Shown: positions 13,288 to 14,068 of the stretch, piece by piece
Numbering within the stretch: the first letter of the stretch is position 1
Layout of the letters: every line of letters starts with the position of its first letter
Source of the DNA: an uncultured Candidatus Saccharibacteria bacterium
GTDB lineage: Bacteria > Patescibacteriota > Minisyncoccia > Minisyncoccales > MHMH01
Length of the DNA stretch: 25,267 bases
Direction of reading: 5' to 3'
NCBI GenBank assembly: GCA_964477885.1
Contig: CAYZHR010000001.1
Location: forward strand, 1 to 25,267
Notes under the pieces: model-generated
What the model was told of the DNA's origin: nothing
What the model saw: only the letters and a program-made list of their open reading frames with translations
The model's database searches: none
Translations under genes and position numbers: made by a program

Positions 13288-13314
13288 AACCGACGAGAAC
13301 ACTTCTCGTCGGTT
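13288..13314. repeat. REP-like hairpin, family A, downstream of RAYT
   Basis: AACCGACGAGAA-cac-TTCTCGTCGGTT, perfect 12 bp stem. Confidence 0.85.
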
Positions 13315-13324
13315 TATTTTAATT

Positions 13325-14041
13325 TTATTCGATTGCGACTTGCTGAAAATCAGCTAATTCTTTTTTGGATTGAAGCCAATCGTTAACAAATCTTTGGCCT
13401 TCTTCGATACCGCCTATTTCTTTAAGCAGAAATTCTCGGTTAGTTAAAGAAGGGAAAATTTTCTTGTCTAAATAATCTGGGTAGCTTGACCACTGGTAGT
13501 TTTCTAAAAATTTAATTAATTTTTGTAATTCTCTATCGCTAATGCCTTTTTCCTTCCAGTTTGGCACTAAAATCGCCACGGGATTGGTATGAATATAGAC
13601 AAAAATTGTTATTAATTGTTTATCGTCTTTAATATGTACGATTCGATACCTTCCCTGAAATAGGTGGCCGCTTCTTTTATATTTTTTATTACAATAACCG
13701 CCGTATCCGGCTCCAATCTTCCGCATAAATTTACTTATACCACCGTCTTTTAATTGTCTAAGTAGTAAATGTAAATGATTAGGCATTAAACAAAAAGCTA
13801 AGATTTCCACTAAGCATCTTCTATTTTTATATCTTTTACCAAATCCGACGAGAACATTTCTCGTCTGTTTTTGTTCTTCGCGATAATACGAAGGAGTAGC
13901 TTCTTCGTTATTAAATTCAAACAAATCATGAATCATTCTAAAATAATCTCTTCGGTCTCTAAAAAGTTTTAACCCTTCTATTGCCCGAATAACAATATGA
14001 TAAATTTCTCCATTAACTATTGGCGGTCTTTTTATCGGCAT
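13325..14041 (-). CDS. REP-associated tyrosine transposase (RAYT, Y1 HUH, IS200/IS605-like fold)
   Basis: GEIYH, CLMPNHLHLL (HUH), GHLFQGRY, YIHTNP (catalytic Tyr), YQWSSY; flanked by hairpins. Confidence 0.9.
   Translation of the reverse strand: MPIKRPPIVNGEIYHIVIRAIEGLKLFRDRRDYFRMIHDLFEFNNEEATPSYYREEQKQTRNVLVGFGKRYKNRRCLVEILAFCLMPNHLHLLLRQLKDGGISKFMRKIGAGYGGYCNKKYKRSGHLFQGRYRIVHIKDDKQLITIFVYIHTNPVAILVPNWKEKGISDRELQKLIKFLENYQWSSYPDYLDKKIFPSLTNREFLLKEIGGIEEGQRFVNDWLQSKKELADFQQVAIE
13845..13867. repeat. REP-like hairpin, family A, inside the RAYT coding sequence
   Basis: CCGACGAGAA-cat-TTCTCGTCTG; translated in frame within KQTRNVLVG. Confidence 0.85.
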
Positions 14042-14045
14042 ATAT

Positions 14046-14068
14046 CCGACGAGAAATGTTCTCGTCTG
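14046..14068. repeat. REP-like hairpin, family A, immediately upstream of the RAYT start
   Basis: CCGACGAGAA-atg-TTCTCGTCTG, 4 nt from the RAYT ATG. Confidence 0.85.

Follow-up and report, generated by a model that had tools for sequence, protein, structure and literature searches.

Three matching palindromes before, within and after a RAYT-like HUH nuclease gene of Patescibacteria

Why does a nuclease gene carry the same palindrome in front of, inside and behind its coding sequence? The question is raised by a gene for a RAYT-like nuclease of the HUH/Y1 type on contig CAYZHR010000001.1 (assembly GCA_964477885.1) of an uncultured Candidatus Saccharibacteria bacterium. The whole analysed stretch of 25,267 nt is referred to below as the window. 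Its host belongs to a lineage of very small groundwater bacteria with reduced genomes (Patescibacteria, or Candidate Phyla Radiation, CPR). The three copies of the palindrome change together in most of the related genes that were compared, and the gene is therefore probably a target of the enzyme that it encodes.

The palindromes and the nuclease gene

The pattern CCGACGAGAA-NNN-TTCTCGTC[G/T]G, also written CCGACGAGAANNNTTCTCGTCKG, occurs exactly three times in the window (13290-13312, 13845-13867, and 14046-14068), and no further copy of CCGACGAGAANNNTTCTCGTCKG was found there with up to two mismatches allowed. Dinucleotide shuffles of the window gave no match to the pattern, again with up to two mismatches, and none is expected by chance. 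A repeat finder returned one 33-nt family with three members spaced by 555 and 201 nt. The hairpins bracket and interrupt a single gene, as one copy lies before, one within and one after the coding sequence of the nuclease (Table 1).

The internal copy is translated as Q59-T-R-N-V-L-V-G66 within EQKQTRNVLVGFG / ...EEQKQTRNVLVGFGK.... The upstream and internal copies have the sequence ATCCGACGAGAA...TTCTCGTCTGTTTTT in common, with 8 nt and 5 nt of non-palindromic flank and an A.G stem mismatch. On the + strand their loops read ATG and CAT, each the exact reverse complement of the other. The downstream palindrome starts 11 nt past the stop codon (12 nt for the pattern match at 13290), between the nuclease gene and a co-oriented acetyl-CoA synthetase gene. 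These findings bear out the original prediction, which was made from the letters alone and which had placed three matching palindromes at 13290, 13845 and 14046: the pattern scan retrieves exactly those, the ORF (open reading frame) confirms that the middle copy (Q59-G66) is in frame, and the reverse-complementary loops within common flanks can be read directly from the sequence.

Folded as single-stranded DNA (ssDNA), the downstream, internal and upstream hairpins have energies of -13.4, -9.5, and -7.4 kcal/mol, with z-scores against shuffled controls of -6.4, -4.7, and -4.0, respectively. Ten independent public assemblies from different samples encode the identical protein, and they have the same three hairpins with the same loops. 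At the hairpin feet, the gene strand reads AAAAACAG / AAACCG and the opposite strand ATCCG / AACCG. The GT[AG]G guide foot is missing, with neither GTAG nor GTGG present. A second, imperfect intragenic palindrome (ACGAAGGAG-TAG-CTTCTTCGT, 8/9 pairs) is located at 13888-13908 of the window, 20 nt from the internal hairpin. It encodes part of NEEATPSYY and was not seen in the orthologue L198 (homologous loci are numbered with the prefix L).

Table 1 Positions of the palindromes, the nuclease gene and its motifs (., no strand assigned).
Feature	Position	Strand	Description
Upstream palindrome	14046..14068	.	gene-sense CAGACGAGAA-CAT-TTCTCGTCGG; ends 5 nt 5' of ATG
Flanks of upstream palindrome common to internal copy	14044-14076		
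Internal palindrome	13845..13867	.	in frame; gene-sense CAGACGAGAA-ATG-TTCTCGTCGG; encodes Q59-G66
Flanks of internal palindrome common to upstream copy	13843-13875		
Downstream palindrome	13288..13314	.	12-bp stem; gene-sense AACCGACGAGAA-GTG-TTCTCGTCGGTT
TATAAT hexamer	14074..14079	minus (gene strand)	5 nt upstream of upstream palindrome; predicted -10 box, read from sequence
RAYT-like HUH/Y1 nuclease gene	13325..14041	minus	238 aa; only long ORF of the region
HUH motif NHLH	residues 88-91		nuclease
Tyrosine motif YIHTNP	residues 149-154		nuclease
WSSY motif	residues 184-187		nuclease

The gene product is assigned by its motifs, its Pfam match and its predicted fold to the RAYT-like HUH/Y1 nucleases (TnpA_Y1 class 2). 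The match to Pfam Y1_Tnp (E 3.3e-10) is limited to residues 75-152. NHLH and YIHTNP are invariant or nearly so among 142 aligned family sequences, with NHVH in most relatives, and a further nuclease motif reads LFQGRY (FQ variant of the W motif). AlphaFold prediction from 32 close homologues gave a pLDDT (predicted local distance difference test) of 38 and was unusable. An alignment of 142 sequences with 46-82% identity, obtained after a second homology search, was used instead, and the resulting model had a mean pLDDT of 87.3 and a pTM (predicted template modelling score) of 0.84. It contains a 100-residue helical C-terminal region. The top match in Foldseek was the E. coli TnpA_REP-REP hairpin complex (4ER8, E 1.9e-5, TM 0.66 on target), and the next ones were IS608 and ISDra2 TnpA bound to their end hairpins, all of them hairpin-binding ssDNA nucleases. 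A sequence search of the PDB gave only marginal matches to ISDra2 TnpA; the relationship came from the fold search. Neither an HTH (helix-turn-helix) nor a DnaA_C domain was detected in the 142 members at E <=0.1, and Y1_Tnp was the sole domain found. The family comprises 1,704 proteins at E <=1e-5 in a single-sequence search and at least 6,735 at E <=1e-10 in a profile search; most members come from the reduced genomes of Patescibacteria, and the named ones from Nealsonbacteria, Paceibacterota and other Patescibacteria. The Pfam Y1_Tnp match and the best fold match, 4ER8, agree with the earlier designation of the gene as a RAYT-like HUH/Y1 nuclease. The label RAYT calls for qualification in its strict sense: the protein scores 50.6 bits against the NCBIfam REP_Tyr_transpos equivalog model, below its cut-off of 80.

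The TATAAT hexamer is a probable -10 box as judged from its sequence. Of 65 homologous loci, 30 have such a hexamer (at least 5/6 matching) no further than 22 nt from the upstream hairpin, compared with 10 of 65 control windows. With a -10 box beside it, the upstream palindrome would probably lie at the transcription start or in the 5' untranslated region (UTR). T-rich runs follow the segments 13288-13314, 13847-13865, and 14048-14066 on the + strand, and these score as intrinsic terminators antisense to the gene (4 terminator-like sites in the region vs 1.2 expected); none of the three palindromes scored on the gene strand. Across the family the A- and T-runs are weak and the antisense pattern is not general. 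A role of the hairpins as transcription terminators was rejected for these reasons, namely antisense-only scores in the window and weak runs in the family. Structure of the sense RNA was also rejected, as stem mismatches showed no excess of G.U (22 G.T vs 19 A.C). No Rfam family matched anywhere in the window.

Palindromes of homologous loci

Homologues were sampled from species-representative genomes. The 77 loci obtained contain, together with the window, 84 gene copies, of which the 75 with usable flanks formed the test set for co-variation. A palindrome in the same protein linker matches the gene's own flanking palindromes in 60 of the 75 copies. In most copies, down to approximately 41% identity, the palindromes lie shortly before the start (centre -14 to -50), in the gene (centre +170 to +223), and just past the stop codon, and the upstream and downstream ones match each other (>=12 nt) in 65 of the 75. 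The three-copy layout is thus conserved in most homologues, and the copies are the same within a locus and different between loci, with stems such as GACGAGAA, CATACGAGAAC, GTCGAGAAC, GGTCAAGGCC, GAGGAGGGAC, and AAGTGGGGAC.

As a measure independent of hairpin detection, the longest exact word between the internal region and the flanks was determined for the gene's own locus and for the other loci. Its median length was 19 nt for the own upstream flank (>=12 nt in 58/75) and 18 nt for the own downstream flank (>=12 nt in 53/75), but 8 nt for the flanks of other loci, where words of at least 12 nt were found in 2.6-2.8% of pairs. The own flank was the strict best match in 52 (upstream) and 47 (downstream) of the 75 copies, and none of 2000 permutations reached the observed mean. 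That the internal hairpin of homologues would match their flanking hairpins, rather than being missing or unrelated to them, had been anticipated in the original prediction, and this reading survives the comparison, given the 60 tracking copies and the permutation result.

Centre alignment of 45 internal hairpins revealed changes on both sides at all 10 stem pairs, and the doubly changed cells numbered 181 compared with 54 ± 7 in shuffles. In one metagenome-assembled genome (MAG; JACPGX01), there are at least 7 divergent gene copies with 58-77% identity to the query and a different palindrome variant at each. Such a set is compatible with one gene per hairpin type, but not with a single copy.

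The protein alignment places the hairpin-encoded peptide in one hypervariable, indel-rich segment (residues ~45-75). Other members have TRTVLV, SRTVLD, SGSDPA, TGTFPA or YENSSRS at this segment, and all of these resemble translated palindromes. In the AlphaFold model, residues 57-67 are the only segment with pLDDT <50 and are located between helix 30-42 (helix A) and strand 78-85, which leads into the HuH strand. The internal copy thus sits in a linker that is predicted to be at the surface or disordered, and so it is tolerated by the protein. The low confidence at residues 57-67 is also in line with the suggestion made at the outset that the peptide lies in a linker before the HUH strand, possibly as a surface loop. 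The codon phase of the hairpin centre differs between clades: it is 2 in that of the window and in the deepest one, 1 in a large clade that is rich in GC, and 0 in a TACGAGAAC subclade. As every reading frame is thus used in one clade or another, conservation applies to the DNA palindrome and not to the peptide, which is a tolerated passenger. The peptide was rejected as a determinant of specificity on the grounds of these three phases and of its hypervariable, predicted disordered segment. For the same reasons the earlier idea that the specificity of the enzyme and the hairpin are swapped together through the encoded peptide is unlikely.

Several loci point to copying among the sites and not to independent point mutations. 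L198, a syntenic orthologue, has GAGAT-CNG-ATCTC in its upstream and internal copies in place of the window's GAGAA-NNN-TTCTC, and its downstream copy does not, which is a compensated double change in two of the three copies. At L199, the internal copy repeats the upstream one in exact reverse complement, down to an asymmetric mismatch. L044 (rel +217/+242) and L062 (rel +163/+188) contain an intragenic inverted doublet, approximately 25 nt apart and REPIN-like, that has the same composite form as in their own flanks. The loops within a locus are identical or reverse-complemented (CAT/ATG, CAC/GTG, CTT/AAG, and CGA/TCG). These common imperfections, common flanks and loops indicate, at the level of sequence, concerted evolution by orientation-blind copying. 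Palindromic arms can pair in either orientation during copying, which would explain identical or flipped loops and also direct flanks around a flipped loop; we infer that the flipped loop in the window arose in this way.

No preferred orientation was found. The loops were in the same orientation in 19 and flipped in 28 upstream-internal pairs, 26 and 17 downstream-internal pairs, and 16 and 23 upstream-downstream pairs (p >0.2 for each), and a fixed architecture, for example with the upstream loop always inverted, was rejected. The flipped loop noted in the original prediction is not special to this locus, as orientation varies across loci without a pattern. Polymorphism of the loop orientation had been suggested as a check; when assemblies were compared, the orientation was invariant across the ten of the window's strain, and an active loop flip was not seen in these or in three near-identical protein variants.

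A rearranged gene is present in L074 (4860-5440), where the nuclease gene is truncated at the internal palindrome, with the 3' end of a neighbouring pilin-like gene in place of its first 73 residues. This structure suggests the remnant expected after a deletion between the upstream and internal palindromes. N-terminal fragments without the C-terminal part, which are expected if the segment from the upstream to the internal copy moved alone, were not found in ~1 Mb.

The palindromes are hardly dispersed. The flanks of the 77 loci, 984,869 nt in all, contained 13 stray copies, mostly intergenic; there were none in the 25 kb of the window and none in the flanks of the closest clade. A metagenome scan for GACGAGAANNNTTCTCGTC, to which we give little weight with regard to dispersal, gave, among the matches listed, mostly single chance matches in unrelated contigs and one contig identical to the window. 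The palindromes therefore appear to be private to the gene and not dispersed repetitive extragenic palindromes (REPs). The proposal that the hairpins are REPs of the usual kind is not upheld, given the missing GT[AG]G foot, the few strays in 985 kb of flanks, and their absence from the window.

The gene order GAPDH – nuclease – acetyl-CoA synthetase (acs) is kept in L198 and L200, whose proteins are 82% and 78% identical to those of the window for the nuclease and 73% and 71% identical for acs, respectively. The window's strain has purM inserted between GAPDH and the nuclease gene. A search of IMG/VR gave no relatives, and GenBank phages gave one distant partial match; an origin from a phage or plasmid was rejected on this basis. 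Judged from these sequence comparisons, the nuclease gene is a resident gene under purifying selection, and neither an active insertion sequence (IS) nor a classical REPtron nor a recently mobile element.

Known systems and possible explanations

In-frame cognate REPs in Y1 nuclease genes (subclass 2.4) are already known, and the present layout is a variation on that. Genes for tnpAREP of subclass 2.4 often hold REPs inserted in frame, and these have been interpreted as non-functional passengers (Quentin et al., 2018, PMC6006769). The original prediction regarded a substrate hairpin within the enzyme's own ORF as outside the textbook REPtron layout; with this publication of 2018, such a hairpin has a precedent. 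As in subclass 2.4 TnpA_REP (Bertels group 4 RAYTs), the cognate palindrome is here in frame in a variable-length region that is predicted to be peripheral (PMC6006769). However, the present copy lies before the HuH strand (alphaA:beta2; residues 59-66 vs HuH 88-91). The REPs of subclass 2.4 are GT[AG]G-footed, often with a double foot, and form genome-dispersed families, whereas the present hairpins have no foot and almost no dispersal; the motifs are WQ and YIxNNP in subclass 2.4 but FQ and YIHTNP in the present family. A fixed position with locus-by-locus co-variation over a deep family is not reported in the paper on subclass 2.4 (PMC6006769), and our literature search found no paper on a positionally conserved, co-varying internal palindrome in a CPR family.

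In motifs and length the protein fits the description of subclass 2.1 (TIRYT-like) better than those of the classical RAYT subclasses, as judged against Table 1 of PMC6006769. Like TnpA_Y1 of subclass 2.1 and the TIRYT 'TIRtrons' (Di Nocera et al., 2013, PMC3733652; Quentin et al., 2018), it has the median length of 238 aa, NH[VLYF]H, FQ, Y[IV]HxNP and an SS tail motif, and there are several divergent copies per genome with few or no dispersed repeats. TIRYT genes are flanked by terminal inverted repeats (TIRs) with GGGGWSAS, whereas each present flank is a perfect hairpin without that motif, and none of the 142 members gave a match to the HTH/DnaA_C-like domain that subclass 2.1 has at its C terminus. 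According to Quentin et al. (2018, PMC6006769), subclass 2.1 yielded no REP-like sequences, and we found no paper on hairpins around subclass 2.1-like genes.

The REPtron of E. coli TnpA_REP (4ER8; PMC3333891, PMC3479197, PMC8266576) resembles the present system in the HUH/Y1 fold, in the cognate hairpins that bracket the gene, and in a separate hairpin type for each paralogue. It differs in that E. coli has hundreds of dispersed REPs and a GTAG guide, one gene copy per genome and no internal copy, whereas the present hairpins are private and lack GTAG, and one MAG of the present family holds at least 7 divergent copies; unlike a REPtron protein, the present one also stays below the NCBIfam equivalog cut-off. 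Some TnpA_REP enzymes are sensitive to the identity of the loop and others are not, and the S. maltophilia enzyme reads the loop (Corneloup et al., 2021, PMC8266576). Intragenic REPs occur in many genes (PMC3733652). Rickettsia palindromic elements (RPEs) and intragenic REPs are likewise translated as surface-loop peptides that do not destroy the protein, but they are dispersed repeats in many genes (PMC3733652), whereas the present palindrome is private and at one conserved position in the gene of its presumed enzyme.

The IS200/IS605 TnpA genes are structurally similar in that a small Y1 gene is closely bracketed by hairpins, which are bound there as ssDNA. They have a Y---Q motif, approximately 150 aa and many near-identical mobile copies; the present proteins have Y---NP and 238 aa, and their genes are divergent (58-77% to the query) and held in synteny. 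A tyrosine nicking enzyme with its nick site within its own gene is familiar from the phiX174 gene A origin and from the pT181 origin inside repC. Those sites are single-copy replication origins of circular replicons, in contrast to three copies at a chromosomal gene with nothing indicating replication.

The best explanation, in our estimate evenly balanced between right and wrong, is that the palindrome is a private recognition hairpin in three concertedly evolving copies, of which the internal one serves as a third cis site for the gene's own nuclease. By analogy with the ends of IS200/IS605 and with REPtrons, the palindrome would be the hairpin recognised by the encoded nuclease. Each gene has its private palindrome three times, at the predicted promoter or in the 5' UTR, within the ORF and directly behind the stop codon, and these copies would be held identical by copying among them, through gene conversion or enzyme-mediated strand transfer. 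If the gene's own product binds or cuts the internal site, the level of the enzyme would be coupled to the state of its own gene; the internal and promoter-proximal copies may then act jointly in autoregulation, or the 5' 200 nt may be excised in a self-limiting manner. The layout and the concerted evolution can be seen in the sequences, and what we infer beyond them is binding, cleavage and a copying role of the enzyme, as well as any regulatory or self-limiting function.

Several points weigh against this explanation. About 10 of the 75 homologues keep matching flanking palindromes and an intact ORF but have no internal palindrome, so that the protein can do without it. Loop orientation follows no pattern, and if the enzyme reads the loop, the cognate hairpin would be presented by one strand at some loci and by the other strand elsewhere. 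The 10 assemblies of the window's strain showed neither a deletion nor an inversion nor a loop flip, and the rearrangement of L074 is a single case. Furthermore, the centres in the alignment of 45 internal hairpins were picked for pairing, and the percentage paired is inflated by this ascertainment.

The main rival, possible but clearly less probable, is that a flanking hairpin was copied into a tolerant linker as a non-functional passenger and is kept similar by gene conversion or re-insertion. The published precedent in subclass 2.4 was read in this way (PMC6006769), and in-frame palindromic insertions are tolerated in many genes (PMC3733652). The hypervariable and predicted disordered peptide and the loss of the internal copy in approximately 10 lineages with intact genes agree with a passenger, and the changes of codon phase and the doublet copies point to replacement events instead of maintenance in place. 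However, a matching copy is present in approximately 80% of the copies in a family that diverges to ~40% identity, deepest branches included, and the internal stems are equal in quality to the flanking ones (median 11 pairs vs 11-12). In addition, direct repeats of 25-30 bp at a distance of 200 bp within a conserved gene carry a risk of deletion, as in L074, and their neutral retention so often would need a strong copying drive.

The private recognition hairpin may also be part of a self-processing cassette, in which the nuclease cuts and rejoins among its three sites and copies the hairpin, with the internal copy being required and not an insertion scar. We regard this further step as unlikely. 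If it were true, enzyme and target could drift together without losing each other, and occasional deletion or inversion of the promoter-proximal 200 nt would provide a built-in off switch.

Double-stranded operators are less probable still. A dimer of the protein would bind the palindromes as duplexes, for example with the helical C-terminal half, and DNA looping would repress the gene as with lac O1/O2. The perfect dyad symmetry of the sites, one copy beside the predicted -10 box, a second copy ~200 bp downstream in the ORF (201 bp in the window, L019, and L001), and the helical C-terminal region of 100 residues would suit such operators, at which loop orientation should not matter provided that the protein leaves the centre uncontacted. 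On the other hand, the stems range from 8 to 25 bp across the family with symmetry up to a 3-nt centre, unlike fixed half-sites, no HTH or DnaA_C domain is found in the 142 members, the upstream-internal spacing varies from 199 to 234 bp (199, 201, 202, 214, 215, and 234 bp) so that helical phase is not kept, and all solved relatives bind folded single-stranded hairpins.

Separate RNA-level elements (one that stabilises the 5' end or blocks translation, one for internal pausing and one for 3' termination, which match only through common derivation) are very improbable, because the upstream copy probably in the 5' UTR and the T-runs after the downstream copies of several homologues are outweighed by the lack of G.U-compatible excess in the sense strand (22 vs 19), by terminator scores that are antisense only in the window with T-runs not general in the family, and by there being no reason for three identical sequences. 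IS200 uses RNA stem-loops to limit tnpA expression, a precedent that was counted in favour of such elements.

Adjoining genes, further repeats and implications

The ORF of the acetyl-CoA synthetase (window 11253-13211, minus) starts 37 codons upstream of the start of two orthologues (MQKKGELYYP). From this comparison, its true start is probably near 13100, which would leave approximately 225 nt of intergenic DNA with the downstream palindrome. On the other side of the gene, L204 (1-1400), which is the window's strain from another sample, differs from the other nine assemblies upstream of -96, counted from the gene start, in that an rve-family integrase gene takes the place of purM; either a rearrangement at the level of the strain or an IS insertion has occurred beside the locus.

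The window also contains an unrelated intergenic repeat of ~134 nt at 1210-1343 and 9121-9252, with a partial copy at 1-44. It has 15-nt terminal inverted repeats (ACCCCGTTAGAAGTC ... GACTTCTAACGGGGT), resembles a transposable element of the miniature inverted-repeat type (MITE), and parts of its two full copies show 76-100% similarity. L056 has a similar palindrome (CCCCGTTAGA...TCTAACGGGG) downstream of its homologous nuclease gene. In several divergent family members (L054, L060, L071, and L075), TTATCCACA, a perfect DnaA-box consensus, adjoins or is part of the flanking palindromes, and in L060 a 46-nt unit with TTATCCACA is directly repeated on both sides of the gene. The metagenome contigs L082, L096, and L128 have 2-4 copies of GACGAGAA-AGG/CCT-TTCTCGTC and no nuclease homologue. 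The spacings are mostly 104, 208, and 416 nt, in L082 also 260 and 882 nt, and this is probably a different tandem or interspersed repeat that shares the core by chance.

RAYT-like Y1 nucleases are among the most widespread transposase-derived genes of bacteria. In the present family, the only candidate targets that could be detected for the enzyme lie on the gene that encodes it, at three sites that evolve in step and of which one is in the coding sequence. REP-like structures were reported to be absent around subclass 2.1-like genes, which is not the case in CPR bacteria. With regard to annotation, the locus is a caution that a hypervariable protein segment may reflect constraint at the level of DNA. 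With one protein and three 23-nt sites, the system is compact and suited to questions of HUH nuclease-hairpin co-evolution, self-regulation or self-rearrangement.

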